Assembly: GCA_013265495.1 (NCBI GenBank)
Contig: MU057395.1
Coordinates: forward strand, 1 to 34,972
Direction: 5' to 3'
Length of the DNA stretch: 34,972 nt
Origin: Vicugna vicugna
Lineage: Eukaryota
Below are positions 14,345 to 34,972 of the stretch, one piece after another. A program made the position numbers and the translations under genes. Under the pieces are notes generated by a model, which was not told the origin of the DNA, did not search any database, and was given only the letters and a program-made list of their open reading frames with translations. The stretch's first letter is position 1. Each line of letters begins with the position of its first letter.

Positions 14345-15250
14345 CCGCTGCTGACGCTGCCCCCTGACCACACTGCGCCCTGCTCCCAGGAGCAGGCTGA
14401 CATGAAGACATGCTTCCTGTGAGCCTAGGGCAGCAGAGGCCGCCCCTAGGACAGGCCCCAGGGGATATGGGAGCAAGTCAACCCCCTCCCCGCCGCCGAG
14501 CTCTAACTGCACCGCGCCTGTCTCCCAGGAGCCAACTGACCTGGGAAAATGTGTCCCGTGAATCTGGGACACTGGCGGGGAGAGGGGTGCTGCCCCCTGG
14601 CAAACTAGTCGATTTGTCCCCATCTCCCCTTCAGCTTGGCCTGGGGGCAGTCTCTGCTGCCCCTGGCACGTCCCCAGGTGAGCCTGCGCTCGGGAGGCGG
14701 GCGCTGTGTGGTCGGTGACAGCAGAGGCAGTGGCAGGGTTTAGGGTTCTGCCCATGTCAGCCTGTGGATTTGCTTCAAACTCCCCCATGGCCTGTCCTAG
14801 GCTTGGCCTCTGCTTCCCCAAGTTCGTGGAGCTCAGGTTACAGGTCAGCCTGCTCCTGGAAGGTGGGCGCTGTGCTGTCAGGGAGTGGTAGCGGCAGCGA
14901 TGGCGGGATTGGGGCTGCCTGGTGAGAGCGCGGGGGTTTGCTACCATTTCCCGCTGTTGCTGCCGCCGCCCCAGCACACTGACCGCACCGCGCCCGCCTC
15001 CCAGGAGCGGACCGACCTGTAACCTGGGTCCTGCAAACCTGGGGCTTTATTGGCCGCCCCCAGGCCAGGCTGTGGGGGAGATGGGACCAGACCCCTCTCC
15101 CAGCTGCCGCGGCGGATATCACCGCCTCCACCTCCCAGGTGCAGGCTGGCTGCGACACATGCACCGCAGCGCACATGGAGAAGCAGAGGCCACCCCAGTC
15201 CAGGCCGTGGTGGAATAGGGAACAAATCCAGGGGCTTGCACTGGGCAGCC
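14345..15250. repeat. GC-rich degenerate ~150-170 bp repeat array with units in both orientations
   Basis: Core CACYGCGCCYGYCTCCCAGGAGC..CTGACCTG..GCAGAGGCC..CCAGG..GGGGAGATGGGA recurs on + (~14345-14490, ~14491-14570, ~14945-15110, ~15110-15250) and on - (~14575-14745, ~14750-14910). Confidence 0.8.
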
Positions 15251-15604
15251 CTCATCCCACCTCAGTAGCCACTGGGGCCACTGCCGCACCACACTCGCCT
15301 TCCGGGAGCAGGCCATGGCCTGAGGGCCAGCCGGATGGTCCCCAACACCCCCCAGCCTGTCCCCACTTCATCGCGGGATACCCCCTCACTCAGAGTGCAC
15401 CCTACCTGGAGCTTATACCCTCACCCCTTACTCTGCGGGTGGGGCGGGGAATTCTGGGCTCCACCATGGCGACTGCCACCAGTGGGAGATCAGGCCTAGT
15501 GTGCCACAGCAAAGCCAATGTCTGAGGCTACAGGGCACAGTGGTTACACATATTTAAGAAATCAAAATGATAATTAGTCCATTGGTGGCCTTATTATTGT
15601 TATT

Positions 15605-16160
15605 ATTTTTTAGAGTCATATGGCATTTTTCTTTCTTTCCCGTCCACTTCCCTTAGAGTGACAATCTTCAGGTCCATCTGTATTGCTGCAGATGGCATTA
15701 TTTTCTTCTTTTTGTATGGCTGAGTAGTGTTCCATTGTATATATATATACCACATCTTCTTATCCAGTGACCTGTTAATGGACATTTGGGTTGTTTCCAT
15801 GTCTTGTCAATGGCAAATAGTGCTTCTATGAGCACTGGGGTGCATGTGTCTTTTTGAATTTTATTTCCCTCTGGATATATGCCCAGGAGTGGGATTGCTG
15901 GATCACATGGTAGGTCTATTTTCAGTTTCTGAAGGAACCTCCATACTGTCTTCCATCATGGCTGCATCAATCTGCACTCCCACCAGCAGTGTACGAGGGT
16001 TCCCTTTTCTTAACACCCTCTCCAGCATCTATCATTTGTAGACATCTCAATGGTGGTCATTCTGGCTGGTGTAAGGTGATATCTCATTGCAGTTTTGATC
16101 TGCATGTCTCTGACAACTAGCAATGCTGAGCATTTTTTCCTGTGCCTATTGGCCATTTGT
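15605..16160 (-). mobile_element. L1 fragment: ORF2 C-terminus and following region
   Basis: [49 protein letters not shown] is the L1 ORF2 C-terminal region; reverse-complement similar to 13793-14330. Confidence 0.92.
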
Positions 16161-16161
16161 A

Positions 16162-16210
16162 GGGCGGTAGGGTGGCAGGGTGGTAGGGTGGGCCCAGGGT
16201 GGGCCCACCC
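16162..16210 (+). repeat. G-rich micro-repeat / potential G-quadruplex with 14-bp palindrome
   Basis: Seven GGG tracts in 42 bp, (YAGGGYGG)x4, ending in the perfect palindrome GGGTGGGCCCACCC (16197-16210). Confidence 0.75.
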
Positions 16211-16214
16211 CTTC

Positions 16215-17910
16215 ATTGGGGAATTGCTGGGTCATAGGCTGTGTTTTCCATAGTGGCATCCAGTTTATACTCAGATGAGCATGTGTGAGCTTCCCTTGCT
16301 CCACAGTCACCAAGCACCTGATGTCCCACTTTTCATTTTGTCTGTCTGCTGGCTTTGTGATGGATTCTGATGGAGGTTTTAATTTGCATTTCCTTGGTGG
16401 CCAAAGAGATGGGGCATCTTTTCATGCTAACTGGCTATTTGAAAGAATTTTCTAAAGTACTTATTTAAGTCATTTGCTGGTTTTTTGTTTTGTTTTGTTT
16501 TTTTGTGGTTTTTTGGTGTTTTTTTTTTTTTTTTCTGTTGGCATGTCTATCTTAGGGATTTTTACAAGTTATTTTCCATATGCAAGCTTTCAGTTGGTTA
16601 CACGTTTTGTAAATATTTTTTATTCTGTGGGTTGTGTTTCACTCTCCATCTTACTCTGTTTGGACTGCTATAACAAAAGCACCATAGACTGGGTGGCTTC
16701 GACAACAGACGGTGATCTCTCACAGTCCTAGAGGCTGGCAGTCTAAGACCAAGGGACGGGCAGAGTCCATGTCTGGTGAGGAGAGGCTGTTTCTGGGTCA
16801 TAGTCTGCTGTGTCCTCTAAGGAGCTCTGGCGTTCCTGTTATAAGGGCACTAGTCCCATTCACAAGGGATCCATCCTCGTGACCCAGTCACAAATGTTCT
16901 TAATTGTAATGTGGTCCTGTGCATTAATCTTGTTTTATGGTTAATGCTGTTTGTGTCTTGATTAAGAAAAATCCCCCTAGCCTGAGGTCATGAAGATATT
17001 TTCCCGTTATTTTGTAAGAGCTTTATTTGCCTTTCACATTCAGGTCTATAATCATCAGAGTGATTTTTGTGTGTCTGTACGGATTAGGGTGTATTTAGGT
17101 TTTTTTCCGTGTAGACAGGTGGTTGTCTCAATGCTGGTTACTAAGAAAATAATTTTTTAACCACTATTATAGAGCCACATTTGATATGTATCAAGGGTCA
17201 TATATAAAGAAGGGTCTATTTCTAGATTCCCTATTCTTTACTGTTGGTTATTTTTCTAGCTTTATGCCAAGAGCACTCTGTTTTAGTCACTATAACTATA
17301 AACATTCTCAGTACATGGTAAAGGAAGTCTGTTCATCTTATCTTTAAGAATATCTCGACTATTCCTGGGCCTTTTTAATATTATCATGTAAATTTTAGCA
17401 GAGTTTGCCACAAAAAAAGTTTGTTGTTTCTTCTTTTTCTTTTTTTTTTTAATTAAAGTGTAGTTAATGTACAATATGGTGTTAAGTCCCTGTTGGATTT
17501 TTGATTGGCATTTTATTAAGTCTATAGATCAGTTTGAATCTTTCAGTTCGTGAACATGGTATACTTCTCCATATATTTGGGTCTTTTTAAATGTCTTTAG
17601 TCTTTTCCATTGACTTTTGTCTTCTTTCTTTTCTAGGTATTTTTTAATGCTATTTTTATTTTAAAATTTAATAATCTATCTGCTGGTATATTTTGAAATT
17701 CAATTTTGATTGGTTTTTTAAAAATTCATCTCCTTGTTTAATTCTTACTAATTCTCATGTTTTCTGATGTCTTTAAGGTATAGTCATATCACTGGCAATT
17801 AGTGACAGTTTGTTTCTTCCTAACCCTTGTAGCTTTCCCCTCCCCGTCCGCCTTTCCTTTACTGCACTGGCTAGGACCTCCAGTAAACTGTTACATGGTG
17901 ATGGTGATTG
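16215..17910 (-). mobile_element. Ancient L1M fragments (interrupted by an MLT1A LTR and a short young L1 tip at ~17430-17487)
   Basis: Antisense L1 phrases: GAATTGCTGGGTCATAGG, GGTTTTAATTTGCATTTCCTTG, CTAGCCTGAGGTCATGAAGATATTTTCC, CTGTTGGATTTTTGATTGG, TTACTGCACTGGCTAGGACCTCCAGTA. Confidence 0.7.
16648..16890 (-). mobile_element. MLT1A/MLT1A0-like ERVL-MaLR LTR (partial)
   Basis: GGACTGCTATAACAAAAGCACCATAGACTGGGTGGCTT...CTCACAGTCCTAGAGGCTGG...GTCTGGTGAGG...TTATAAGGGCACTAGTCCCATTCA matches the reverse complement of the recalled MLT1A0 consensus. Confidence 0.85.
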
Positions 17911-19226
17911 CAAGTGTTTTTTTTAAAGGACTGAAAAAACCAAAATGGAACATGCAAACCCTAATCCAGAGAAAATCGAGCCAAATTCTGCATTGAGGTC
18001 TGTCTTAACTATGCAGCTCTGGGTTTGGGGTTTTCCTTCTTGGTTTTTGTTTGTTTGTTTGTTTGTTTTTTTACCATATATATTTCATTGTGTATTGCTA
18101 AAAGATAATGTTTCTTTTAAAGACTATTACATCTAAAAAATGAATAAATCCTTATAATCACATTTCCCCCAATTGTTTCATTAAAGGGGCTTAAAGGTTG
18201 GGCATTAGACGGTGTATATAGTTATACAGTTATAATGATATATTCATCTACTGTGCCTCCCTGATTCCCACACCTCAGAGAGATTGTGATTTATCCAGAA
18301 TCCCACATCAAGTTGCGGTTAGAATTAAGGGTGCATTTGGAAGTGGAAATACCTTCCTTTCCTGAATTTTAAGCCCTTTTTTGTGCTGCCACTTTAGTGT
18401 TTTTGTTCATCGCAGGTTCCATCTTGAGCATCCCGCCCCCTCCTCCAGCTGTGCCTAGGAATTCTTGAATTTGTCTTCTTTCTTTAACTGTAATTGAAGT
18501 TCTCAGTCTGATAATATCTAATCCGTGTCAAAGTCCTTGAGCCCCACCTTCCAGTTTACCTTGTCCTTTTCTAAAGTGTCCTTTGAAAGCTCTTTATCCT
18601 GAGTAATAATTCTTTTACTCTAAGAGAAAGTGGCAGCCATGAACCGCATAAGCATGAGAATTTGTCTGAAATTTTTTAAAAATTTTCAGATTGATTATTA
18701 CAAAAGTAATCACTTATTTAAAAAGTAAATAAGTAATATATTTGTTTTAAAATTTTCAACAATGTGTAACTATATGAAGTAAAAACCGACTGTACCATGG
18801 TCCTGCCCACTTCTACCTCACTCCTTCCTCAGTGGTAACAATTGTTAAGTTTGCACATCTCATTCTAAACTTAACCTTAAATAGATACACCCAATATATT
18901 ATATATACTTGTATACATACATAGTTTTTTGTTCTTTGAAGATACTCAAAAGGTTTTACTTATGCTACAGAGCTTTTACTTATGCAACAGTCAATGTATT
19001 TTACAGGAAAGGTATTCTTCCCCTTGCAGTTAGTGCTGGATAGCTGTCCTTTTCATTTTTCCTGTATGACTATGTTGTAAATCAGGAAAAACAGGTTAAG
19101 AGAGTGCCTACAAATACCAGGAAGACTTGTAGGTAGATTTCCACTTCATATAAAGGCATAAAAGGATGTAAGTAGTATGGAAACTAAACCATTTATAAAT
19201 GCCATATAGCATGCATTTTTGAAAAG

Positions 19227-19332
19227 TTTTTGTTTGTTTGTTTGTTTTTTTAGTGGAAGTACTGGGGATTGAATCCAGGAATTTGTGCATGCTAAGCATG
19301 TGCTCTACCACTGAGCTATATCCACTCCCCCC
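19227..19332 (-). mobile_element. tRNA-derived SINE, camelid Vic-1-like
   Basis: Reverse complement reads GGGGGAGTGGATATAGCTCAGTGGTAGAGCACATGCTTAGCATGCAC..CCTGGATTCAATCCCCAGTAC (Pol III A and B boxes) with a (CAAA)n tail. Confidence 0.88.
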
Positions 19333-20459
19333 TTAAAAGTCTTAAAATAGAACTTAACCTACCAAAGTACCAAAAAGGACCAAATTTACAATTAGTTTAG
19401 CAAAGTTAGCTTGTTTGAAAGTTAGCTTTTCTTGTTAAAAAAAATCATCTTCAAGAAAATTTGAGAAATACAGAAAACAGAAAAAAAAAACCTACGCATG
19501 GTCATATCATAAATGTTAATAGCCAGACTCAGGCAGATTATGGCAGTAAGTAGTCTGGATTTCTTTCTCAGAACCCTTTCCTCCAAATCCCAGGTGGGAT
19601 TTTATAAGAAGGTCTCTCTGAGGCTCAAACTTATTGCAATATAAAAACTTTATTTAATCTAATTTTTAAAAGATCCCAAATAACTAAAATGTACTAGACA
19701 AACTGAATAGAATTTCTCTCTTCTCTTTATTGCCATGAGTCCTCTCTTTCCTTCTCTTGCTCCCAACTTTCATATAAACGCACTGAATTGGAGTAAACCT
19801 TAGGGTTGGCCCGTTCGGTATTTAGGAAAACAAATTTTACCAAGTCCTTTGGCATCGCTTCTAATGAATAGAACATTTTTGTTTTGTGGCCCTGCGGCAA
19901 CATAGTACTTCAGAAGGAGAATCTCCTAGCCTAGAGGAATCCTCTGAGAGCTGGCCGAAACAATTTGAACTCAGCTTCAATGAGCATCCGCTTTTTTTTT
20001 TTCCCGCTCCTTTTGGAATGACAGTTTGAAACGTTAGAAAAAGTTCATTTCTGAATTTTATAAAATTTCTAGCAAAGAGACAACTGAAGTACCCCTCGAA
20101 ACACATTTCACCAAAAACCTTTTTAATTTTTTTTTTTTTGGGCATAACAAAATCTTTGTGAGGTAGGAAAAGCAAGAAGTTAGGAGAGAGGAAAGCCTCC
20201 CACCTAGGAAATCTCTCTTTGCGTATTTCCTAACTAGCTACGGTACTTGGCACGGTAAGTGCCTTTCTCCTCCAGCCTGGACGTGTTGCTGGCTCGCTCC
20301 TCCAAGGAAGGGAACGAGATGCTGCGGGGTTTAGTAACGGTTCACTTAAAATGGATCCGCAGCGCAAGTCTGCAGTAGCACATTCAGCTAATGAAGAACA
20401 GGCTTCTGCATCAAGTCTCTGGACGCCCCTGGTACCTTCTAGTTCTGTCGTTAGGGTTC

Positions 20460-21000
20460 ACCTGACGTTGCTATATAAAAATTAGCACACTGATCCTGTA
20501 AAGCCCGCCACCTCGCCAGCGTCGCTCCCATTCTTCCCCTGCTGCTGGGAGCGGGGGGCCTGCCCTGTGCCCGCGCCGCGCTCGCTGCAAGAAGGGGTGG
20601 CACTCCCAGCCTGTCGGTCCCCGGACTTAGTCACCGTCACACGTGTCGCAGGGCGGCGCGGTTGACGGGAGCCGCCTGTCGCCCGGAACCGGCGCGCGCC
20701 GGTGACGTCACGGCGGAGGCTGCGCCGCGCGCCCGTTATGGCGGCTCCTGGGGCTGCGGCGGAGCGGCAGGGAGCTCGTCGCCCCGGCCTCCTCCTGCCC
20801 TACAACGGGGGAGGAGACGCCATCCCGCTGCGGGAGCCGCACGAGCGAGGTAAGCGGGCGGCGGTCCCCGTCCCGCCCGTCCCCGGCGCTCCCGCCGTGG
20901 CGCCGGTGGTCGCGGCCTCCGGCGTGCGTCCAGGTGCCGCGAGGAGCAGCGCTGCCTGAGTCCTAGGGCGCTCCGGCGGCGGTGACGATGAGCACGCTTC
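20460..21000 (+). promoter_or_regulatory. CpG-island promoter of the CLCN3-like first exon
   Basis: Dense CpG/GC at 20500-21000 against an AT-rich background. Full CRE TGACGTCA at 20703-20710, E-box CACGTG at 20640-20645, TATATAAAA at 20472-20480, YY1-like ATGGCGGC overlapping the ATG. Confidence 0.8.
20738..20849 (+). CDS. CLCN3: CLCN3-like alternative first coding exon (ClC-3c-type N-terminus), diverged
   Basis: ATG in strong Kozak context (GTTATGG) gives MAAPGAAAERQGARRPGLLLPYNGGGDAIPLREPHER-G. The second half matches the recalled ClC-3c N-terminus (..YLPYDGGGD(N/S)IPLRELHKR-G). Donor AG|GTAAGC at 20850, phase 1, is compatible with the exon at 32112. Confidence 0.8.
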
Positions 21001-23134
21001 TGTATTAAGGCAATTTCATACACGTTCAAGTGGTTAGCTACAGTGCCTGCCACAGGGCTCTCGTAGGAACTTACTCGATGAAAACATAGAGGATAATTTT
21101 CACACGTCAGAAAAAATAATAGTAGTTTGTGAAAACCAGAAAAGCGCCCAGCATTCATGTAAACCGTTTGGCAGGCACTGCCAAAACTGATTACATGTTA
21201 AACTGCCTTTTTTTTTTTTCATTTTTCTTGGACTGATTATTCTAAAAATAGGCTTACAGTTCTAGAAAGATACTTGAACCGCCAGAAAAATCTCTTAGCT
21301 AGATGACTTCGTTTATGAGCCACATTAGTTTGAATTTCCTGCATGATGTTGTAAACTCATTTTATGGTTTAATCTGAACTTTAATTTATGAAGAAAATAA
21401 GGAAGTCATGATTTTCCTGAGCGTGTTTAGCCTCTTTTATTTAAAATAGGATTTGTATTCTGAGAACACTTTTTTTTAAAGCATTAAGTTCCATTAGGAT
21501 TAAAAAATGGTAACATACCTAACAAATATTTATCGGTTGCACTGTGTCTACCAGACCAGACAGTATTAGGCTCTGAACAGTGGCAACATTATTTATATAT
21601 ATCCTGTAGTATTCTGTTGCTAGTAAAAGCTTGATTTTCAGATTTTGAGAAAAAATATATGACGATCATGTTACGTATGTTGTGCTTTCTGTTAGTTACC
21701 TTCTAGTAAAATACATTTATGTATATATAAATTATTCTGGTGCATTTGGGGAAATATCTAAAAGCACAAAGAAATTAAAATTTAATGGTCTTAGCACCCA
21801 GAATTGTTGGGTTTGTTAGTTTTTCCAGTTCAAATGTGTTCCTAAGCTCTCCTTTTTCCTCTGTTCCCATGATTCCTTTTTTTGGTAAGGCTTTCTTTAA
21901 ACAGGAAGCTACGTGAATGAATGGTGACCGTTAAAATGTCACAGTATTTGTTAATCAGTAATTAAACTGTGTTTTCTCTGAGCTATTATAACATTTGTTT
22001 GTTGATTTATAATAAACCAGAAGACCTGGGCTTGGGACGTTTAAATTCCTAGTGTTAAATTTGACCATCTTGGACAGAATGTATATATGGACCCCACCTC
22101 TGCATGGGAAAGAAGTCATAGCTTATATGAGAGTAGGCATGGTTACTGGTATGGTTATTACTAAAATATAAGCTCTTTATTTCTGTTATATTTTCATAAA
22201 TAGTCCTTCAGGAATTTTGCTCAAGGTGGAAATCAGTCCCACTCTTGGCAGCCTAAGCAGATTCCTTATCCTTTGATGAGCACTTACTCAGTTAGCAGAA
22301 GCCAGTGTTATTTGAAAGTAACATTGTGTCTTTGTAGTGCAGACCAAGCTGGGAATTAGGCTCACTTGACTCTACTGTAGTATGCTCGTATCTATGGATT
22401 CGAGGTTATTTGTTATCCATAGTTTATGACCTTTTGTGGCCATGGGTCAAAACAAAGGAACTGGAGATGTGGAGACAGGCAGCTAACATAAATAAAGAAG
22501 AGGAGTCAGCTTCCCTGTGAGGACAGAATTAGAATGACTAGAAACATCTCTTGGGGCTGATCAAGAGTGAGGAGGCAGATAATCAAAGTATAAAATTGTA
22601 AAGCATAGCAGCAAAGTAAACACGACTCTTTAGTGAATCCCTGAGTGCTGGAGTTAGGGATTACCTTTGTGGAGCAAACTAAATTTGATGCCACTTGTCA
22701 CAGTGAGATGGTAAGTGATGAAGGTTCCTATTTAAGTGAGTAATAGTAACACTGGAAATGCACGGAGATTAGAATTTGTTAATATATTGCTGGTAGATCA
22801 GAAATTAAGGTGACATTTTAGAAATTATTATCTTTTGGGGTATATTTCCTGTACAGAAAGTTAAGTTCTTTCATAAAATGTCTCTTACAATTTTATCAGG
22901 GAAAATAACCTTTGGTTTATTTAGATTTTAAGTTTTATGCTCTTTCTTCCCTGTTAATGACGTTTAGGTAGCTTGGAGGTTGAATGACTCTAACAGACCC
23001 TTAGAGTGGTTTGATTTGGGGGACCTTCAGCATCATTTAAATATTTCTTGTTTCATTGGAAGTGTTTATTGAGCTCCTTGATCTGAAAGCTACTATCGGG
23101 TGCTGTGGAGAACCCATGGTGGTAGTAATAGTGA

Positions 23135-23270
23135 AATTAACAACAGCTAGTACTTAGACGCTGTTGTGAGTGCTTTATGTGTAGGAATTCATTTATGTGT
23201 AACAAGACATTAATCCTCGTCACAGATCGTGAAGTAGGAACTGTTACAGTCCCCATTTTTGAGCGTTATC
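23135..23270 (-). mobile_element. MIR fragment
   Basis: GTGAGTGCTTTATGTGTAGGAATTCATTTA...AATCCTCGTCACAGATCGTGAAGTAGG..CCCCATTTT resembles antisense MIR. Confidence 0.6.
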
Positions 23271-24557
23271 CAAGTCAGCGGAGTTTGTACGTGCACATGG
23301 GGATTTGATGGGCATCCCTGGTGGAAAGGGTAGCAGCGCACGTGCTCTGGTGGGAGGGAGTGCCTAGTGTGCTGTTCGCTGGTCTGCGCCTCAGTAGAAG
23401 GGGTGCTTCAGGAGGGAAGAGGCCCGACCCTAGAGGACCTTGAAGGCCAGGCTTGTAGCAGTCTCAAACCACAGCAAGTGTGGCTTTCCTTTTGAAATAA
23501 AGTTTGAGGTCTTATTTTTTGTACATTTCTACCTGAAATCATTTCTTGACATCCATTAGCATAGAGATCTATTTAAGTAAAGCTTTTTTCTTCCTGTTAT
23601 AATAGATGAATTTGTTCATTTTTATTCCCTCCTAAAAGTATCAGTAGTTAGCACTTTTTGCACATTATTTGGAAATCTAGGTGTTAGATGATATTCTTAT
23701 AGCCACAGAAGCAATCCTATAGGTTCTTTGTAAAATGATTTTGGGATTCAGGTCCTTATTATACTTTTAGTCAACTACAAAACTGAGCCTCTTCTTACAA
23801 ATTATTTCATCTAAAGTGTCTATAAATTAAAAAGACAAATAGAGATTATTTGAGATCAGAAACTCTTTGTATTCTAAAATAGTATAAAACAAAACTGTGT
23901 TTAAGTTTACTTTGGCCACAGTATATGGATTTAAAATCTTCAGTAAAATGTGGTTCATATACTGCCTGTAGTTCTATTTTCTAAAAATAACTGGCACTCT
24001 TAGTATGATTAATTTTATACCATCTCATAGCTTGCTGTGGTTAAAAATGCTTTGTGTTTCAAAGTATCAAAACGTGAGCAGATCTCCTGCCACGTAGATT
24101 AGATTTGGGATTTTGCCTGTTTTCCCAGCATTGGAGTCTCTGTTTTGTGCTGATATGAGGCCACAGGAGACTGGTGGCTTCAACTGTATTTTAAAGTTTT
24201 GTTTCTGTTTTTCAATAGACATGTTTAATTTGTAGTTTTTTGCAGTTCTTTACAACCTTAATTAGATCAAAATGGATTTGCTTTAGTTTATCAATTTATT
24301 CCTGCCTCCATTTAAAAGAGCAAGTTTCATGAGTCTTCTAATTTATGTGATTTACAAATCACTTTACATGCAGAGGTCCTAAACAAACGTGGAACTTGTT
24401 TTCAGTTATGCTGATGTCTTAATATCCGCTTTATCACCCTAGCCTACGGATACGGCCTTTTATTTTCAAGTGTCGATAGAATGGAGAAGGAGACAGTGAA
24501 TTGGGTAATTCAGCATCGCCACTTACTGATTGTGTATCCTCTGTCAACTTTGGGATT

Positions 24558-24860
24558 TTGATGTCAAGCAGGACTCTGTGGGCTTCCCCCCAACCCCTGC
24601 CTCTTGTTTGTAGAACACCTGACATCTCCCAGGCCTCCCTGAGTCATAGAAGAGCAGACTCCAGCAGCTGATAGGACAAGCCTGCAGGCACTAGGGGAAT
24701 GACGATTCTGAACACCTGTCTCATTGATTAACTGAGATTACTCCCCCGTTTCCCTTTAAAACTTTCATGGCTCAACAGAATCTTTGGAGATGGTTTCTTG
24801 GGGGGGCATACTGGGTCCACCAGGTTGCAGGCATTCTGACTAAAAGCAACTTTCCTTTTT
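24558..24860 (+). mobile_element. ERV1-type LTR fragment
   Basis: CCCTTTAAAACT TATA-like box, GGAGATGGTTTCTTG, CCAGGTTGCAGGCATTCTGACTAAAAGCAACTTTCC (decayed poly(A) signal region) resemble ERV1 LTRs; family not determined. Confidence 0.55.
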
Positions 24861-25441
24861 GTTACCAAAGCTGTTGCCCCCAGGGTCATACCCCTGCCCC
24901 TCCCTGGACTACAAACCAGTTACTATTATCTAAGTCTCAGGAGGCAGCTTCAGAGAGAAGACACAGAACCTGTTAGAACCAAGATGGCAGAGGATCTGGC
25001 TTCCAGTGGACCTTGGGCCTCCTTATATGCTCGTGGTAATGTGTTAAAGACATACCCACCAGTGCCACAACAGTTGGCTGTTGCCATGACAACAACCAGA
25101 AAGGCCCATACAAGGGCTGACTGGCTCCATCACACCCAGAAGGAGGACATGATGGCAGAAACCTCCCATAAAAGTCCACATGGCCCGACCCAGGTGGAGC
25201 TGTCTCCACCAGCCAGCTTGGCTGCCGGCTCCCCACTCAAGCGCCTTTTCCTCACTTAAGCACTTTTCTTCCCTTCTCCCTTCTCCAGCACTTTCCTTCC
25301 ATTTCCTCGTTTCCTCGGTTGAGAAAGAAAGCAGCTTTTGCTGTGTCCCTCTGCTTCAGCTGTGAATTCTTTCCAGCTGGCAGGGAAGATCCCACCTTTT
25401 GTGGGGTCTCCATCCTAAGGAGGAGTCTTCTGCTGCTGACA
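24860..25441 (+). mobile_element. Solo LTR, ERV1 (MER41-related)-like
   Basis: Begins TGTTACC and ends CTGACA; contains CAAGATGGC..TGGCTTCCAGTGGACCTTG..ACCCACCAGTGCCAC..TTGCCATGACAAC and a GAATTCTTTCC 3' motif. Confidence 0.6.
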
Positions 25442-26214
25442 GTTGGCTTTACCTTCCAAGTCTTTGCAGTTTAAATAGACAGCAGTTAAATGTGACTGGG
25501 GGTGGTGGGATGAATTTAAAGAGCAAATGCTCCATTACCTTCGTTTATCCAGCAGACGTGTAGTTGGCCACCTGCTGAGTACAGGCTCTGTGTTACCCTG
25601 TTCATCTTTCATTTGGCCGTTTGCTGACATTCTGGAACTTCCACTATCAGCTTACCACGTTCACTTTCCCCTCCCTCACCAGGGTGACCATTTCTTACCA
25701 GTAAGGTGGCCGAGGGAAGGGAAAAACACACTGGGGACTAGACTTCCGGCTCCAAATGTATGGTTGAAACTGGGTTGTCAGGGAATATGTAGAATTTTAG
25801 ATTTCTGCCTGCCTTCTTTCATAACTTTTTTTTAAAAAGTATGTTTTGTGTGTGTGTGATAGGTTAGTCATCTGCCTGTAAGCTTAAGTGGCAGGGATCA
25901 CTGCTGTCACATCTTTTGGGATTGACCCCGGAGGTAACAAGTAGCAGTCTCAGCAGACAAATAAATACCTACTTTTGCATGTAGAACTACTGTTTGAATG
26001 TTCCTCTTTGAGAAGAGGCGTAGACTGCTGAAGGTGTGTGATGGTGAAATTTACTAATGGATTCATTCAGTTTTAAGTGTAACAGTTTAGTATTTTTTTT
26101 TCAGATCAGTTCAGCAAATATATGTTGAGGACTAGTGGGTGGGAATATAAAGGCTTTTATTTATGGGGAAAGCAGGTAATTTCACTAACGTCTATATTTC
26201 TGTAGTTATGTTTG

Positions 26215-26422
26215 TCGAATTACAGGTTTCATCATGTTGGGTTGTGACCAGTATTTTAAAAAAGAAAGGAAGGAAGGAAATAGAAAGTGGAAATATCAGA
26301 ATATATGCCAGATATTAAATATGCTAAACTTTGGTTTTACTCACGTGTGTATCTGTACACTGTGTCAGCGGGAAATGTTTCTTGCTCTGTGGGCCACAGT
26401 CAAAAGAGTTTGAAAATCAGTT
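26215..26422. mobile_element. hAT-Charlie non-autonomous DNA transposon fragment (MER112-like; family uncertain)
   Basis: TGGGTTGTGACCAGTATTTTAAAAAAG...GAAATATCAGA...CTGTGGGCCACAGTCAAAAGAGTTTGAAAATCAG is a hAT-type end. Confidence 0.55.
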
Positions 26423-26783
26423 TCTAAGTATATACCTGGAGGGGCACTTGGGTCCACGTTCTGTGCCGGAGATGAGTCTGGAACTATCTGAGGACAGGAA
26501 GAGGGCGTGTTCTGTCCTAGACCTCTGCTGAGTGAGGCACGGAGTGTGAGGCCGGTACCAGAGCAGTGCTGGTGACAGCTGCTGCAGCAGAAGGCGATCT
26601 GGAGCCAGAGGCAGAGGGGGCTCTGATGGCGGCTGGGCTGTCCTGATAGTCTGAGTGCTAAGTGCCTCCTGGGAGGAGGTAGCACAGTCCCTAATCTGCT
26701 TAGAGAGAGGGGCGTGTCCACGTGTCCTAAAACCTGCCAGCAGATAAACCATAGAATTATTTTTAGGCAGTATTTTAGGCCGT

Positions 26784-27035
26784 ACAGTGTGTAGTGGTAA
26801 GAAGTATCTCTGGAATCAGAGTGCTTGAGTTTGGATCCCTGTTCCACTGCTTACTAGCTGTGTGGCCTTGGGCATGTCTCGTAACTCTCTGGGTCTCATC
26901 TTTCTAGTTGATAGAATGGAGATCTTAATACCTGTCTCCTGGGTTGTTGCGGGGGGTAAATGAGCTAATACATGTGAAGTGCTTAGAACCACATGTAGCA
27001 CACCGTACGTGCTCAGGGCATGTTAGCGGTTTTAT
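26784..27035 (+). mobile_element. MIR SINE, near full length
   Basis: GTGTAGTGGTAAGA..CTCTGGAATCAGA..GCTTACTAGCTGTGTGGCCTTGGGCA..GGTTGTTG..TAAATGAGCTAATACATGTGAAGTGCTTAGAAC. Confidence 0.9.
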
Positions 27036-27134
27036 CGTCACAACACAGCACCTGGCCGCTAGGTGGGAAAGGTTGGTTTGATTCTGATGTCATCTGGTTT
27101 ACTATGTGTGTTCTTCTGCCACCTGTGCTTGTTT

Positions 27135-27333
27135 TACCTACTCCCAGGATCACAAAGATTTACTCCTCTTTTTAGGCATTACAGCCTCAGCCCTTACATT
27201 GAGGTCTGTGACCTGTGTAGAGTTAATTTTCATGTATGGTGCAAGGTAGGTAGGGTCTGACTTCGTTCTTCTATATGTAGGGAGCCAATTGTCCCAGCAT
27301 CATTTGTTGAAAAGACTGTTCTTTACCCATTGG
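27135..27333 (-). mobile_element. L1M ORF2 fragment
   Basis: GAGTTAATTTTCATGTATGGTG...CCAATTGTCCCAGCATCATTTGTTGAAAAGACTGTTCTTT. Confidence 0.75.
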
Positions 27334-27931
27334 TGAAAATATTTCTTTAAATAATAACGTAAAATTTAATTCTCCTACAGATAATTTTTAAACTTTTTGT
27401 TTAGATTATAGATATTAATAAACAATAAATCTGTGTTTACATGGGTGTGCATGAAATTTACAAAGTTTTGTGTCTAGGGAAAAAATAAACAAGGCAAAAA
27501 GTCCTCTTATCAATGAAGTTATTTTTGCAAGAAGGCTGCAGGCCAGTTACAGCTCATTGACTGGACAGTTTTCCCTCCTGGCTGAGGTGTTTTAGTGTTA
27601 GTCATGCTTGAACTATGAGGTATTGTTGTGATATTTAAATTATAGAATGTCCACTTTGTGGAAAGATTGGTCACTGAACATGCATTCTAGAAATTTGTTT
27701 TTCTGTCCATACCAGGCTTGATTATCTGTTAAAAATCTACAGAATTTTTGCTCAGTATGCAGTTGTAGACGAACCCAGAGCTTAAATTTGTGAAACACTT
27801 TTTTCTCCTCTTTGTCATATTATTATTCTTTTGGTTAAGATTAATACCATGTGAGTAATGAAATACAGCTTGATGAAATTCTAAATGCCAAAATATTTGA
27901 GCAGAAGCGATAACTTGCGTTTATTGATCTC

Positions 27932-28504
27932 CTATTTGTCGAGGTTATTAACAGGTGTTTTACCTCTGGTCCACGCCCCACACTCTGGAAGCAGGCGAGA
28001 AGACCCAGGCACCTGTAAGAGGTTACTAAGTGGTCTGTGCTGCGCCTGCAGCCGGGCACGCAGTGCAGCTGGAACATGACTCTGGGCTTTCTGACCTCAG
28101 AGTGTGCTAAGGTCGCAGAATCTCTCTACCAGGCCACTCTGGAAAGAAAGTGATCTTTAGTCTTTTCTAGATGCAGTTTTCAGCCATTAGATAGTAGAAG
28201 GGTGGTCGCTGGCAGCTACTATTTGTCAAGGTTATTAACAGGTGTTTTACCTCTGGTCCACGCCCCACGCTCTGGAAGCAGGCGAGAAGACCCAGGCGCC
28301 TGTAAGAGGTTACTAAGTGGTCTGTGCTGCGCCTGCAGCCAGGCACGCAGTGCAGCTGGAACGTGACTCTGGGCTTTCTGACCTCAGAGTGTGCTAAGGT
28401 CGCAGAATCTCTCTACGAGGCCACTCTGGAAAGAAAGTGATCTTTAGTCTTTTCTAGATGCTGTTTTCAGCCATTAGATAGTAGAAGGGTGGTCGCTGGC
28501 AGCT
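27932..28504 (+). repeat. Tandem duplication, 2 x 286 bp
   Basis: 27932-28217 is repeated at 28219-28504 (period 287); 7 mismatches counted by eye. Confidence 0.97.
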
Positions 28505-29621
28505 GGCGGTCAGACCTCCAGAAAAGTTTTTGTCTTAATTTTGGGTGCTGCTACTTTCAGATCTCACTCTTACAGTCCGAGGTCTAGGGATCTAGGTAAC
28601 GGGAATTGTCCTGTGTCCTTTAAAGTTCAGTCCTTAAGATTAATAGACTTCCCCTGTCTTTGTATCACTCTGCTCGAGGCTTGCATATCCAGGAGACGGA
28701 GTTTGATGAGCCCACCCTGGGTGGCGTGCTGTTTCCTTAGCTGGGGAGGGGAAGATGCTCTGGTTGACATCCTGCATTCAGTGTTCGCTAGAAGTTTTCA
28801 AAAAATAATTGGCTTGTTTCAGAAAGACGGGGAAAGGGTTACCAGGTGGGCAGAAGCAGCATTCATTGTTTAAAATTGTAACCCTTTCTGTATTAATTCC
28901 TATTCTCACTGCTTCTCTGAGTGATCAGGAAGGACAGATTGCAGCCTACATTGCAGTTCACTTGACTTCTGCCTGCACAGTCATAGAATTGGTCCCCGTA
29001 TTGGCACGGTGGCTCTGGGCACCTCCCTTCCACCTACCCCAGTTGATTCAAGACCCTCTTCTGCTCTGATCTAGGCAATACTGATAGTGGCAGGGGAAAA
29101 TCCAGATTCCAGCTTTGCCACGCGAGCATTGTGTGAATGGCTCAGCATTTATGGTAGTTTCTTTGTGGGTAAACAAAAGACGACACACATCAGTTTAAAC
29201 CATCAGACTTGTAGAAGAGAAGTTTGGGAATTTTGCTCTTCTCTTAGAAGCCACAAAATAGAACAGGTTTCATTTTTACAGTGTTTGTGTATACCATCAA
29301 CCTTGTGTTCTGTATCAACTAGTACATTTTCATTTAAATGACACACTTTTAGGTGTTTATTTTTGGCATGAGGACTGTATTACTGCCACAGAATATGAAG
29401 ATGTAATCTAATCACTTATGCTAAAATCACCTATTTGAAAAATTATGTACCAGCTTTGCTAAGTTTTTAGGGCTTTAGAAAAATTCTGAATGCCTTTTTG
29501 CTTATACATACGTCTTTATTGTAAGGTAATAACATATACCTTATAGATGCTTAATATTTAAAGACGACTTTGTCCAAAGTTACTTAGCTGGGTAGGACTA
29601 GAATCTGGGCGGTTGGTAGCA

Positions 29622-29976
29622 GTCTGTTTCTGTTTTGTGAATAAGTTCATTTGTGTCATTTTTTTAGATTCCACTTGTAAGTGATATCATATGATACTTG
29701 TCTTTCTCCGTCTGACTTACTTCACTTAGTATGATAATGTCCATCCATGTTGCTGCAAATAGCATTATTTCATTCTTTTTATGGCTGAGTAATATTCCAT
29801 CATGTATATATACACCACAGCTTCTTTATCTAGTCATCTATCAGTGGACCTTTAAGTTGCTTCCATGTCTTGACTGCTGTGAACAGTGCTGCTGTGAACA
29901 TTGGGGTGCATGTATCTTTCTGAATTGGGGTTTTCTTTAGATATACGCCCAGGAGTGGGATTCCTAGATCATATGT
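29622..29976 (-). mobile_element. L1 ORF2-end/3'UTR fragment
   Basis: TAAGTTCATTTGTGTCATTTTTTTAGATTCCAC..TGACTTACTTCACTTAGTATGATAAT..CCCAGGAGTGGGATT; homologous to 10500-10730 and 15610-15910. Confidence 0.88.
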
Positions 29977-30766
29977 TGGGCTACATCCTTTTTAACTGCT
30001 GCATTGTATTCCATTGCACAGATGTCCATCATTCATTTAATTATCAATGAATGGGACATTTCTGTTGGTTTGACTTTTGCAGTATACAAATAAAGTTTCA
30101 GTGAAAACTTTTAAGTCTTTGTGCACTTGTAGAATTGATTCCTATAAGTGGAAACTTTATATTTTAATAGATATTTCCAAATTGTCCTTCCATATGGTTG
30201 CATCAGTCTTTACTTCCACTAGCAGTGAAACACTCAAGTTTGCTAATTTTCACTCTTGGGTTAGGGTGACTGTTTCTTAGCTAGCCTGGTTTTTGTCCTT
30301 CAAACTCTTTCCTAATGGTGTAATATAAACTGTCTTTCACAGTCAGTATTCATATCACATACATGTTTCTTTTTTCAGAAATAGGTATAAACATATCTAA
30401 CATCAAATATTTAGCTGTAATTATTGTGAAACCGTAGCATGATGGTTTCAAATTACAACTTAAAATTTACATTCTTAAAGAAGTTTTCTTAGACTAATCC
30501 CACCTAGTTATAGATACTTCAGTCTTAAGATTTCCTTATCACAAATTAAACATAGGTAACGCAACTAAAATTGACTTTCTAGTGCTTTGATGTTAGAACT
30601 TGGTTTTAAAGTATATTTTGAATTTGGAATCCCCAACTTGTACCTTAAACTCAGGGATGATATTTTTGTTACCTTTGTATCTCCTGTACTATCTAGAAGA
30701 GTGCCACTTACGTAGAAAGTTCTTGATAAATGTCTTCAGGTGACTTTGGCTTGTGCTGTGGAGACT

Positions 30767-30953
30767 GCAGGTCTGGGGTTGAGCCACACCTCACTCTCAC
30801 GTGTTTCGTAAATAAAGTGTGATGATTGAAACAGCCGTATCTGTTCATTTATGTGTTGTCTGTGACCTCTTCAGTGCTTCTGTGGCAGAGTTGAGTCGTT
30901 ATGACTGTACAGCCTCCAAAATCTCAAACGCCCCGGCTCCTTTGCCGACCGCT
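30767..30953. mobile_element. MER58A-like hAT-Charlie MITE
   Basis: GTAAATAAAG..GAAACAGCC..TTCATTTATGTGTTGTCTGTG..GGCAGAGTTGAGT..TTTGCCGACC. Confidence 0.75.
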
Positions 30954-31267
30954 CTTTCAGATCATAAGCGCTTTAGCCTTCATTGTGCTTGCTTTCTAGA
31001 GCACTGGGAAGGTGTCCTGCCCCTGTGCATAATTTATGGATTTATGCAGGTTTAAGTGCTGAAAAATTCTGGAGGTGTGCTTGCTGGGTTGGAGGGCATC
31101 TGTGTAGCTTTGCCTTCCCAAAGAGGTTATACCATTTTATATTGGAACTAATGATTTTTGTGGCAGGGGCCCTTTTCTGCATAACTTTGCCAACTCAGTG
31201 CACTAGCCAACTGTTTTTATCTTTACTAATCTGATAGAAGAAAATGAAATTATAGATTTGATCTGTG

Positions 31268-31418
31268 TTTCTTTTTTTTTTAATGCACTTCTACTTTTTA
31301 TTTTATTTTTGGGGAGAATAATTAGGTTTGTTTATTTTTTAATGGAGGTACTGGGGATTGAACCCAGGACCTTGTGCATGCTAAGCACACACTCTGCCAC
31401 TGGGCTGTACCCTCCCCT
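31268..31418 (-). mobile_element. tRNA-derived SINE, camelid Vic-1-like
   Basis: AATGGAGGTACTGGGGATTGAACCCAGGACCTTGTGCATGCTAAGCACACACTCTGCCACTGGGCTGTACCCTCCCC preceded by a T-rich tail. Confidence 0.88.
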
Positions 31419-32111
31419 CTCTCTTTTTCATTTTTTTGTGTTAGATTGACCATCTTTCCAAGTTTAAGAGCCATTTTCATTTCTTTATTGTGAATTGTCT
31501 TTCAGTCTCCTTCCTTGTAGCTTCAAGTCTGTTACACTCTTATAAGGTATATAGTGGACACTTGTCAAAGATTTCTGTAACTCTGGTGAGGGGACCAGCT
31601 GGATGAGGAGCTGATTCAGAGGAGGATGCGTGAGGCTCCCGGACACTGGTAGTGCATGGGAGGAAGAACTTTGTTACAGGTCGGAGTTAAACAGCAGAAC
31701 CAGCACTGCAGCTGGGGATTTTCTTTTCTACTAGACAGAAATCATTTACATTCTACCAGATGACAGTCATAACTTTCGATTTGTCAATCTTCTGTAAGTC
31801 ATTATCTAACTAACTTTGCAGAGTCTGTGCCATAATCAATAGCAAATAGTAAGTTCAGCAGAGTTCCCGCCCCCAGAGCTTACAATGACTGTTAGGCAGG
31901 TGTGTTTGATTCTCCAGCAAGAGTTTGAAAGGATAGGCCATAGTCTTTCTGCTTTATTTCCATTTTCTTAATGCTTTCCTTCCTCTACTTTATTGCAGTT
32001 ATTTCAAGTGATACTGTTTCTTTATGAATCACTAATGAGCTGCTAAGAAGGTTGCACAGTTCACCATTGTCTCTCATAAAACAGGCTCCTTGTTCCTATT
32101 TTGCTCCATAG

Positions 32112-32268
32112 GGACTCATTACACCGTGACCAACGGAGGCAGCATCAGTGGCTCCACGCACTTGCTGGACCTCTTGGATGAGCCGATCCCGGGTGTCTGC
32201 ACGTATCATGACTTCCACACCATCGACTGGGTGTGGGAGAAGTGTAAGGGCCGAGAGAGGCACAGCAG
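32112..32268 (+). CDS. CLCN3: CLCN3-like exon (N-terminal cytoplasmic region with LLDLLDE motif), diverged and possibly frameshifted
   Basis: Acceptor TTCCTATTTTGCTCCATAG| and donor AG|GTGAGC. Encodes [51 protein letters not shown] versus recalled ClC-3 [51 protein letters not shown]. Homology is clear; functionality is doubtful. Confidence 0.9.
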
Positions 32269-33126
32269 GTGAGCGTTTCCAGGAGCTTTTAAAGTACAGT
32301 GCATAATTAGATCATTTCATAATGACTTTCTGCCAGTGACCTCAGCTTGCCAAAATTTGTTACACATTATAAGTAGATGTAAGTAAATTTCTTTGTTTTA
32401 TAAATAATACTTTTTTTCTCTATGTGACTTTTTTTTAGAAGTTTTTTTTTTAATATCCCCTGTCTTTCTAGAAAGGATTTGAAGTAGCTTAGAATTGAAG
32501 TGTCATGAGACAAAATAGGGAGGGAGGGGAACCATGGCATGTGAGCTGGGGGAGGATCAAGCCAAGGTCCAACCTGGAGGTCAGCATAGTGCTTGGCTTG
32601 GAGCAGCGCGGAGGCTGCGGCCGTGGTTCCAGCTGTTAGAGAAGGAGGCTTTTGTGGCGTGGGGTTTGCTTCCTCTTACCTGCTTCCGTGGTTTTAAATT
32701 CTGAGTATGTCTCAAATTAAGTCCTTTGTAGGGCATGTTGAATGTCGTAGTGAATCACTAATCAAAAGAAGAGTAGCTTTCACTAAAAACTACAACTTAG
32801 GTGCTGTGTTTTGTTGTTGATGGAGGCTTACAAAAACAAATTTTGAAAGGGGAAAAAAAATTCTTGAAAATAAAATTCCAAATTCCAAAAGACTGTTTAC
32901 AAATTTAAGCTCTGAAATTTACTTGTAAATAACTACTTGTGCAAATTAGTCATAAACTTTCATATTAATGTACACGTGTATGAAACCTGAAATTGAAATT
33001 AGATTATATTGTTTACAAAAAGTACTGCTTCTGAGATTCAGCAGTCAATATTTACCTTTTCTGGAAACATTTTAAATAGGTATAACTGAAAATGGGACGT
33101 AATACATGCAGTCAGTATTCTAAGAC

Positions 33127-33825
33127 CAGTAGTTCTCAAACCTTCTCATCTCAGGTCCTCTGAAACTCTAGATAATTGTTGAGGATGCCTGAGCTTTTGT
33201 TTATGTGGTTATATTAATAGGTATTTACCATATTAGATACTAAAACTGAGAAATGTAAAAGAATATTAATTCATTTAAAAAATAACTGACAAACCCATTA
33301 CATTTTAGCATAAAAAACATTTTTATGAGGAGGGAGGGTATAGCTCAGAAGCAGAGTGTGTGCTTAGCATGCACAAGGTCCTGGGTTCAGTTCTCGGCAT
33401 CACCATTAAAAATAAATAAATGATAAACTAATTCCCCCCAATAATACTATATAAAGAGAATGAAATTATTAAAAAAAGTTTTATGAAAATAACTACATTT
33501 TCCAAAATATAGAATATTTAATGAGGGAATAACATGTGTTACATATTTATAATCTCATTCATTATCGTCTGGTTTATTTAAAACTGCTGGGTTCTCGTCT
33601 ATGAAGAGAATCCAGCCTCACACAACGTGTGGTTAGAAAAGCCGAGAGTGTTTTAAAAACCTTTTCAGATCTTTGTGGATATTCTCCTCTGACCCTGCAC
33701 CATGCTGACAGGTGGTAGTTTCTTAAAGATTAGTTGCAGTGTGTGATGTGAGACTGAATCAGGGAACTTGTTTTCTTCTGTTACATTAAAGTCCCTTGAA
33801 CTTTGGTGGATGATTTTGTAGCCAT
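33127..33825 (-). mobile_element. Charlie1-like hAT DNA transposon fragment (interrupted by a SINE)
   Basis: Terminus CAGTAGTTCTCAAAC, GAGCTTTTGTTTATGTGG, AAACCCATTACAT; minus-strand peptide TLQLIFKKLP and CCAGCCTCACAC (CEAGF antisense) fit the hAT transposase C-terminal domain. Confidence 0.8.
33328..33475 (+). mobile_element. tRNA-derived SINE, camelid Vic-1-like, nested in Charlie1
   Basis: GGGAGGGTATAGCTCAGAAGCAGAGTGTGTGCTTAGCATGCACAAGGTCCTGGGTTCAG with A-rich tail; flanked by AAAAAACATTTTTATGA and AAAAAAAGTTTTATGA (imperfect TSD). Confidence 0.88.
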
Positions 33826-34972
33826 GGGAGCCACTGTCAGCCCAGCGTGCCTGAATCAGACACTGCATGCCCCGTGTCTTGTGTGATTGGTAGGTGAGCG
33901 CATTTGTTCTTGGAAGGATGAAACTTGAGAGTCATGGGCACATCAGGGAGGATCTGACTGTGTTCTAAAGTGAGGGTGGAAGAGGATCCGTAAGACAGTG
34001 TTCAGAAAATTTTAGTGAAAGTTGAAACTAAAAGAAACCACAGCATGTTGCTTTTTTCTCTGATTATGTAAGTAGTCCACGGCCCTGGAAAACACTGCAA
34101 GTAACATCACCATACGTGAAGCAGTCAGTGAGCGTCCCAGCTCTTCACATCCGTCATCTCTCTCCCTAGGGAGGTCAGATACCATTTTCAGCACTTTAAT
34201 GTGTGCTTGTATAAGCCTAAACCCTTGGGAAGCTGGGAAGTTCTACATGGAACTGTTCTTACTGTTGTTCTTAAAACGTCGAATTAAAAGAAAAAACTTT
34301 CTCAGTGCTTGTTCCTGCCTATCCTGTAGTCCTTCTACCCCAGGTTACTTGGAGGCAGATAAACATTGTATCATTTCAAATATTTATTTCAGTATCTTGA
34401 GCAATGCTGTAATCTAATTCTATTCCTATTTTATTTACTAGCTTGACTATTTCCATAGAGAGAGCCTTTCCCTCACCCGATTGTGGGGTACCCTCACGTT
34501 TGAATTGTACAGGAAGGAGGGAGGAAGTGTGAAACCACGCGGCTCCCAAGCAGCCACCAGGCGGGCCCGGCAGGGTCTTGTTTCTGCGTCTTCAAGCACT
34601 CGTGCGCTTGAACACATTTGAGGCGGGGTACGCAGCACAGCTTGTCCTTCGTGATGCCCACAGTGTTCCAGCTTTGACTGCGGGAAGCTTGTTTGGGTTG
34701 GTGCCGTGTCCTTTGACACAGCTTAGTGGACTTTGATATATTCTGGGGAAGACTCAACCTGCCTGGTTCCTGCACCAAACCTGGACTCAGCTCTTCCTAC
34801 CAGGAGACTTGATGTGGTTTGTGGACCCCCTCGCTCTCGAGTTCTGAGGTTCTTGCTACAGATGCAGGTCTCTGGGTGGGTGCTTGTCTGATTTGCAGGT
34901 GCAGCAGCTGTTTGACACTGATTCTGCCCCCAGACTCTCCTGTCCCATTATTTAGTTTAGAAAGTGCTGTAA

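Follow-up and report, generated by a model that had tools for sequence, protein, structure and literature searches.

Introduction

Unprocessed pseudogenes that arise by partial segmental duplication keep the introns, splice sites and promoter of the parent gene; they are truncated at both ends, carry frameshifts, change at the neutral rate and leave the parent intact in its old synteny. For CLCN3, a processed pseudogene (CLCN3P1) is known in human. The CLCN3 product, ClC-3, is described in PMC7940362 as an endosomal 2Cl-/H+ exchanger, and its variant ClC-3c as being sorted to recycling endosomes by its N-terminus. The present analysis concerns a copy of CLCN3 in Vicugna vicugna. It lies on contig MU057395.1 (here C70) of assembly GCA_013265495.1, which comprises 2.03 Gb in 12,405 contigs; the window that was analysed is the entire contig, 34,972 bp in length. 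Positions 16224-34972 of this window very probably represent the 5′ portion of a CLCN3 pseudogene of the unprocessed kind, with its introns kept.

In its build the copy agrees with the described unprocessed pseudogenes. It keeps the exon-intron structure of the parent (18.7 kb are collinear, introns included, and the splice sites align), it is truncated at both ends and frameshifted, it has changed at the neutral rate, and the parent is intact in its old synteny. Unlike typical members of the class, it has a CpG island that is undecayed at about 12% divergence, and a second variant about 98% identical to it is present. Its first exon is homologous to the ClC-3c-specific exon (exon 1c, PY-GGGDAIPLRE...). 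Unlike CLCN3 and its ClC-3c form, however, the copy is without the upstream exon that carries the MESEQ motif, without exons 11-13 and without the CBS domains, its frame is broken, and it differs at 56 of 398 residues. CLCN3P1 is likewise a dead CLCN3 copy away from the parent locus; the window copy differs from it in having introns and a promoter, and thus arose by DNA duplication rather than by retroposition.

Results

A complete CLCN3 gene is present in its usual synteny

A genome-wide search with the exon-2 peptide of the window found five loci: the window itself (C70, 100% identity), C10229 (98%), C8841 (87%), and C3091 and C5843 (60% and 54%). The last two carry full CLC exon sets and are other CLC genes, probably CLCN4 and CLCN5. 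The parent CLCN3 is complete on C8841, a contig of 4.8 Mb, with the MESEQ exon at 502,083, the ClC-3c exon (MDAAADPYLPYDGGGDAIPLRELHKRG) at 521,174, exon 2 at 532,931, and exons 2-13 in order, ending at about 559.5 kb. All of these exons are open and 90-100% identical to pig-type ClC-3, apart from the alternative C-terminal exons (72-75%). On the minus strand of the same contig, at 482.76 kb, lies the first coding exon of NEK1 (MEKYVRVQKIGEGSFGK...), head-to-head with CLCN3. An earlier note on this DNA, made from the letters of the window, had proposed a duplicate of CLCN3 and had named a separate, conserved CLCN3 in the usual neighbourhood as the point to look for; such a gene is present, next to NEK1 and with its MESEQ exon.

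Two side observations concern CLC sequences outside the window. The parental ClC-3c exon has a short upstream open reading frame (uORF; ATG, 11 codons, TGA) about 70 nt ahead of the main ATG (C8841:521,100-521,175). A further CLC-like match at C7944:4,102,873-4,106,517, without introns and with two in-frame TGA codons over 215 codons (PF00654 positions 173-288), may be a processed CLC pseudogene.

The copy starts within the intron upstream of the ClC-3c exon

The window was compared with the parent by blastn against C8841:470,001-570,000. Window positions 16224-34970 correspond to C8841:515,866-535,763 in six collinear high-scoring segment pairs (HSPs), with 81-87% identity including gaps; within this segment, 89.4% of the aligned intron bases agree. 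Two phase-compatible CLCN3-like exons about 11.3 kb apart had been described for this region, and both are found at the claimed places with their splice sites kept (Table 1). Read jointly, exon 1c and exon 2 are 81-87% identical to CLCN3 proteins. The 53-residue exon-2 peptide has 78 protein matches at E ≤ 0.001, and its identity to ClC-3 of species ranging from fish to mammals is 70-87%. The tandem duplication at 27932-28504, within the intron, arose in the copy, because the parent has a single stretch there (529,065-529,325) on which two of the window HSPs overlap.

The start of the homology lies, on the parental sequence, 13.8 kb past the MESEQ exon and 5.3 kb short of the ClC-3c exon, and upstream of 515,866 the parent has no match in the window save unrelated L1 copies. 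The motifs MESEQ, SEQLFH, LLDGAG and SYNSIT gave none of four in the six frames of the window and four of four at the canonical locus. A tblastn search with the MESEQ-isoform protein (P0035) matched exon 2 and nothing else within the window. Since the homology begins between the MESEQ and ClC-3c exons, the copy starts within the upstream intron; the proposal of a partial segmental duplicate beginning in that intron, with no MESEQ exon upstream of it in the window, is thereby borne out.

The 3′ exons were searched for with the Voltage_CLC profile (PF00654; 40 of 40 candidates scored) and with a 777-residue ClC-3 protein (53 of 53 scored). Two small contigs continue the copy. C2855 (5,775 bp) matches parental positions 537,745-544,071 at about 87% and carries copy exons 5-8, and C7078 (1,772 bp) matches 544,881-546,648 at 81% and carries copy exon 10. 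Exons 3 and 4 of the copy fall in an unassembled 2 kb between C70 and C2855. Neither query found a copy of exons 11-13, the coding sequence of the final transmembrane helices and of the CBS domains (PF00571), the matches being confined to C8841, C3091 and C5843. As assembled, the copy covers about 31 kb of the parent without either gene end; exons 2, 5, 6, 7, 8 and 10 are recognisable in it, and the Voltage_CLC Pfam domain matches exon 8.

The reading frame of the copy is broken

The canonical ClC-3c start codon (...ggccATGgac...) has been removed from the window copy by a deletion at about 20.78 kb, which amounts to 41 nt when measured against C8317, a contig carrying the second variant, and to about 35 nt against the parent. 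The ATG at 20738 belongs to the uORF, whose parental stop TGA reads GGA in the window. The deletion joins the uORF in frame to the exon, and this ATG is therefore not the canonical ClC-3c start. Exon 2 has lost 1 nt, 3-4 nt ahead of its donor (CACAG-ACGG-GTGAG in the parent, CACAG-CAG-GTGAG in the copy). This deletion is common to C70 and C10229, and no alternative GT restores the frame. The same exon has 8 amino-acid changes in 53 residues.

Further lesions are found on C2855. Exon 6 carries a 4-nt microduplication (GTTA) that shifts the frame and lies 60 nt from a run of N. A 3-nt deletion in exon 7 changes GAPIGGVLFSLEE to GARI-RVLFSLEE, and exon 8 has a 9-nt deletion together with a donor altered from GTGAGT to GTGGTT. 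Selectivity and gating in CLC exchangers depend on the motifs GSGIP and GKEGP and on the proton glutamate in FSLEE. GSGIP and FSLEE are retained in the copy, GKEGP, behind the exon-6 frameshift, reads GKEGS, and GAPIGG reads GARI-R. A continuous reading frame through the transmembrane domain is thus broken in exon 2 and again in exon 6, exons 3 and 4 being unassembled. Among database proteins of at least 315 amino acids, none is more than 82% identical to exon 8 of the copy. An apparent TAG stop in the exon-8 matches on C2855 was rejected as a lesion; it consists of the intron acceptor AG plus one base.

The exons have changed without sign of protection

Intron sequence of copy and parent (23,830 aligned nt) is 89.2% identical, with a Kimura two-parameter distance (K2P) of 0.118 and a transition/transversion ratio of 2.07. 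The exons (1,200 nt) are 91.6% identical, with K2P 0.091. For a neutral copy beside a constrained parent the expected exon divergence is 0.059 + 0.25 x 0.059 = 0.07-0.08, and against this expectation the observed 0.091 leaves the exons without sign of protection. Over the 398 aligned codons, with their 56 amino-acid differences, nonsynonymous divergence (dN) is 0.067, synonymous divergence (dS) 0.176 and their ratio (omega) 0.38; dN comes near the 0.059 by which the introns have diverged per lineage.

Residue changes were polarised with 8-13 other vertebrate ClC-3 proteins, rows below 85% identity (isoforms without the exon) being dropped per block. In exons 2, 5, 6, 8 and 10, all 49 of 49 differences fall on the copy side, the parent agreeing with the vertebrate majority. 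All protein change has therefore taken place on the copy lineage, and at a pace close to that of the introns per lineage. The possibility of gene conversion between the two loci was considered and rejected, the identity profile being flat (0.80-0.94 per 400 nt).

A second variant and the age of the duplication

Parts of the window recur at 96.8-99.4% identity on two further contigs, C10229 (5,713 bp, of which 4 kb are an N run) and C8317 (732 bp), which together show 44 differences from it in 2,349 aligned columns. In exon 2, C10229 reads TMT where the window reads TVT. C8317 retains the canonical ClC-3c ATG and reads MDAAAAAGLFLPYDGGGD... from it; its uORF continues out of frame across the main ATG. 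Mammalian neutral rates are 1-2.2e-9 per site per year. At such rates the two variants, 1.9% apart, would be separated by a few million years, and the intron K2P of 0.118 would place the duplication at about 25-60 million years ago. An event of that age would be older than the parting of Old and New World camelids, and an orthologue would then be expected in alpaca, llama, guanaco and vicuna.

Parent and copy share seven residues that depart from the majority among 8-13 other vertebrates, and three of them (Gly in QLGLAL, Val in SMAVGA and Gln in FIFQ) are absent from all of the 8-12 others compared. By these seven shared derived residues the duplication belongs to the camelid lineage and came later than the split from pigs and cetaceans, the other artiodactyls compared; they also support the word lineage-specific in the earlier note. 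Cross-species contamination as the source of the copy was rejected, as parent and copy share these derived residues and there is next to no variation among CLCN3 orthologues in these exons. The best named proteins for both gene families of the window, CLC and olfactory receptor, are from Camelus.

Copy-type residues also occur in two camel protein models. A Camelus dromedarius model of 150 residues named 'H exchange transporter 3' (P0081) begins MDAAAGGLFLPYDGGGD..., has 26 of 26 residues in common with exon 2 of C10229 and is pieced together from copy-type exons 1c, 2, 4 and 10. A Camelus ferus CLCN3 model of 914 residues (P0004) has a partial exon 2 of copy type (…SISGS…) just ahead of the true exon 2. 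The copy is thus present in other camel records, where it has misled gene prediction. P0004 also holds about 110 residues of non-CLC sequence.

Sequencing runs were sampled for words of window positions 27000-34972. DNA runs from 7 studies with 4 organism labels hold 70-76% of the words; the run with the largest share may be the source sample, and from the others it follows that the sequence occurs beyond this one assembly. RNA runs hold 6-14% of the sampled words, three of them being labelled 'reproductive system metagenome', and give no evidence of expression or tissue. A Y-linked or ampliconic origin was also considered; the accessible text of a paper on the alpaca Y chromosome (PMC7830431) contains 0 occurrences of CLCN3. 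A literature search, not exhaustive, that combined CLCN3 with camel, dromedary, Bactrian, alpaca, pseudogene and copy number found no camelid CLCN3 duplicate.

The CpG island of the copy has kept its CpG richness

CpG islands are stretches longer than 200 bp with a GC content above 0.5 and an observed/expected CpG ratio above 0.6. Window positions 20480-20980 form such an island (501 bp, GC 0.75), with 72 CpGs and an observed/expected ratio of 1.02, against 1.05 in the parent. Of the parental CpGs, 52 of 78 (67%) survive in the island of the copy, compared with 71 of 235 (30%) in three intron stretches, where the losses are mostly to TG or CA, and the island has 16 CpGs of its own. At 81-88% identity, its sequence is if anything conserved less well than that of the introns. 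The island has kept its CpG richness, rather than its sequence, and from this it appears to have been free of germ-line methylation for most of its history. Escape from germ-line methylation usually accompanies promoter activity, and on sequence grounds the putative promoter of the copy may still fire, yielding a non-coding or nonsense transcript. Expression driven by the internal ClC-3c promoter, as proposed in the earlier note, would be compatible with the intact island. At 20703-20710 the island contains a TGACGTCA palindrome, a candidate cAMP-response element that is conserved in the parent and in both variants (C8317).

These features bear on an alternative, in our view unlikely, in which the copy would be a transcribed pseudogene with a function of its own, either as a non-coding RNA that modulates CLCN3 or as a short peptide corresponding to the ClC-3c N-terminal cytosolic tail. 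The candidate peptide, made of exons 1c and 2, would have about 90 residues including an LLDLLDE stretch. The observed/expected ratio of the island, its new CpGs, its higher CpG retention and the conserved TGACGTCA are all in keeping with such a function, as is the canonical ATG retained in C8317. Against it stand the conservation of the island, lower than that of the introns, the 8 of 53 exon-2 residues changed, all of them on the copy side, and the loss of a normal start from the window copy. A more particular form of the idea is a shade less probable again. In it, transcription of the locus, perhaps in the germ line or reproductive tissue, would have kept the promoter unmethylated for tens of millions of years and would give a regulatory RNA (antisense-independent of CLCN3) or the tail peptide of about 90 residues. 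If this were true, the tail peptide could compete for the machinery that sorts ClC-3c/ClC-4 to recycling endosomes, and the locus would be a camelid-specific modifier of endosomal ion transport.

Olfactory-receptor relics adjoin the copy on this contig

Upstream of the copy the window holds two relics of the OR6C family, as the earlier note had recognised, and both are real. The first, at 1179-1625 (-), matches Pfam 7tm_4 (PF13853) with E 1.4e-15. Its best named relatives of ordinary olfactory-receptor length (about 310 amino acids) are 'olfactory receptor 6C2-like' proteins of Camelus (C. bactrianus, C. ferus and C. dromedarius), at 85-86% identity; OR6C2-like proteins of Vicugna pacos are 82-84% identical. 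The second, at 10033-10490 (-), is degraded. By BLASTP it aligns with a Camelus OR6C2-like protein (P0155) over residues 215-290 (45% identity, E 2e-18) and over residues 50-169 (E 4e-14), the convincing portion of the latter being residues 135-169, and it has no Pfam match at E ≤ 0.01.

Elsewhere in the assembly the OR6C-like cluster is scattered over contigs including C11927, C9626, C5865, C9927, C11158 and C9621. The matches lie from the first few kb up to about 130 kb of each, and the closest relatives of the window receptor on these contigs are 84-87% identical to it. With the cluster fragmented in this way, an unplaced 35-kb contig from such a region is not unusual.

Between the receptor relics and the copy lie L1 pieces and a dispersed repeat (Table 1). 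The repeat has a GC content of 0.62-0.68, a CpG observed/expected ratio of 0.23-0.63 and internal inverted self-similarity; it gave 377 first-look candidates in the genome, of which 40 scored copies are 73-82% identical. The parental breakpoint lies presumably in an old L1 3′ fragment, judging from the sequence as read against the general L1 ORF2 C-terminal pattern. The window contains three N runs (1628-1712, 5621-5978 and 6106-6865), and from 6866 to 34972, where the join of receptor and CLCN3 sequence sits, it is free of gaps.

The join could nevertheless be an assembly chimera, the CLCN3-like DNA being real, the OR6C2-like adjacency being artificial and the small contigs being alternative haplotypes of one copy. 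An unplaced contig of 35 kb, a stretch from 10.4 to 16.2 kb made up nearly entirely of repeats (L1 pieces and the GC-rich dispersed repeat) and a copy broken across five small contigs would all fit a chimera. We nonetheless think it improbable. The join does not cross a scaffold gap, the flanking repeats, at 75-85% identity to other copies, are too old to be likely to mislead an assembler, and the fragmentation of the OR6C-like cluster leads one to expect a small contig. As to haplotypes, 44 differences in 2,349 columns together with a 41-nt indel between the variants are high for alleles.

Three tRNA-like matches lie in the window, at 19254-19325 (-), 31343-31414 (-) and 33334-33405 (+), with Rfam tRNA scores of 30-44 bits; ARAGORN called one tRNA-Ala (AGC). 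They are most likely the heads of tRNA-derived short interspersed elements (SINEs) within the intron, and neither Rfam nor ARAGORN found anything beyond them in the window.

Table 1. Features of the window, in order of position; strand is given as + or -, with a point where none applies.
Feature	Position	Strand	Basis and remarks
OR6C2-like open frame	1176..2045	-	289 codons; broken by the N run 1628-1712; without obvious start codon
Degraded OR6C-like pseudogene fragments	10033..10490	-	BLASTP to P0155; interrupted by L1
Further L1 pieces	10479-11033; 13295-14343	+; -	L1 ORF2-like frames; 75-85% identity to L1 copies of C8841
Dispersed repeat, GC-rich and CpG-poor, between receptor relic and copy	14350..15600	.	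Genome copies
L1 fragment touching the junction	15616..16161	+	blastn to L1 copies in the C8841 stretch, 75-85% identity
G-rich filler of 62 nt between L1 fragment and start of CLCN3 homology	16162..16223	.	Alignment
Duplicated CLCN3 segment, 5′ part, to contig end	16224..34972	+	Six collinear blastn HSPs to C8841
CpG island, putative ClC-3c promoter of the copy	20480..20980	+	CpG content
Homologue of the ClC-3c first coding exon	20738..20849	+	37-codon frame from ATG; ends in phase 1; donor GTAAGC
Intron	20850..32111	+	11,262 nt, against 11,678 nt in the parent
Tandem duplication, 287 bp, 2.0 copies, 97% alike	27932..28504	+	TRF; within the intron
Homologue of CLCN3 exon 2	32112..32268	+	Acceptor ...ttttgctccatag (ccatag); donor GTGAGC; 157 nt, against 158 in the parent

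Discussion

Several points weigh against the interpretation of the copy as an unprocessed pseudogene. The exon-2 deletion is the only lesion present in two contigs; the indels of exons 6-8 are found on one small contig (C2855) and could be assembly errors. The missing exons 11-13 may stem from incomplete assembly, and a compensating change is possible in the unassembled exons 3 and 4. Gap openings are fewer in exons than in introns (3.3, n = 4, vs 12.0 per kb), a contrast that shrinks when one considers that the parent lineage accounts for roughly half of the intron indels. An omega of 0.38, or about 0.76 on the copy lineage if dS is split evenly, leaves room for early constraint. Weakly, there is no in-frame stop in 398 codons; as a sign of selection this absence was rejected, as neutral simulation gives it a probability of 0.07-0.17 (about 0.14). 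Lastly, the join of receptor and CLCN3 sequence is supported by this contig and no other.

The earlier note had left two choices, a ClC-3c-only paralog or an unprocessed pseudogene, and the second has stood; the lost start, the frame-breaking indels, the missing 3′ exons and a protein changing about as fast as the introns all tell against the first. A working lineage-specific paralog, in which a transcript from the internal promoter would encode a functional, fast-evolving Cl-/H+ exchanger, can claim phase-compatible exons with kept splice sites, an intact CpG island, 398 codons without a stop and the retained GSGIP and FSLEE motifs, but deserves very little credence when set beside an exon 2 short by 1 nt in two contigs, the +4 frameshift of exon 6, the change of GKEGP to GKEGS and the broken GAPIGG, the canonical ATG gone from the window copy, exons 11-13 with their CBS domains found only at the parent and two other CLC loci, a copy-lineage dN near the intron rate, and the want of any long annotated protein, the sole model being the 150-residue patchwork.

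The history of the pseudogene is most probably the following. A segmental duplication on the camelid lineage copied CLCN3 from within the intron that precedes the ClC-3c exon as far as about exon 10, some 31 kb in all, and placed the duplicate beside OR6C2-like olfactory-receptor genes; the MESEQ exon was never part of it. Neutral drift afterwards brought the deletion of the start codon, the frameshifts and the deletions that break the motifs, and the copy later produced, or segregates as, the second variant of about 98% identity. The duplication itself, its limits, the lesions, the neutral rate and the retention of CpGs follow directly from the sequence comparisons; the age, the activity of the promoter and the way the join came about are inferred. 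The copy is unable to make a Cl-/H+ exchanger. It is a new instance of a well-known type of object, an ordinary duplicated pseudogene, whose sole unusual feature is the undecayed CpG island.

The main importance of the copy lies in annotation hygiene and in the read mapping of CLCN3 in camelids. To it are due the spurious 150-residue model in one camel record and the copy-type exon-2 fragment in another, and reads from it can find their way into variant calls or expression estimates for CLCN3, a human disease gene. In biological terms, it is an example, with a date, of a segmental duplication that entered an olfactory-receptor region on the camelid lineage, and, if transcription were confirmed, a CpG island that has outlived its gene would be of modest interest.

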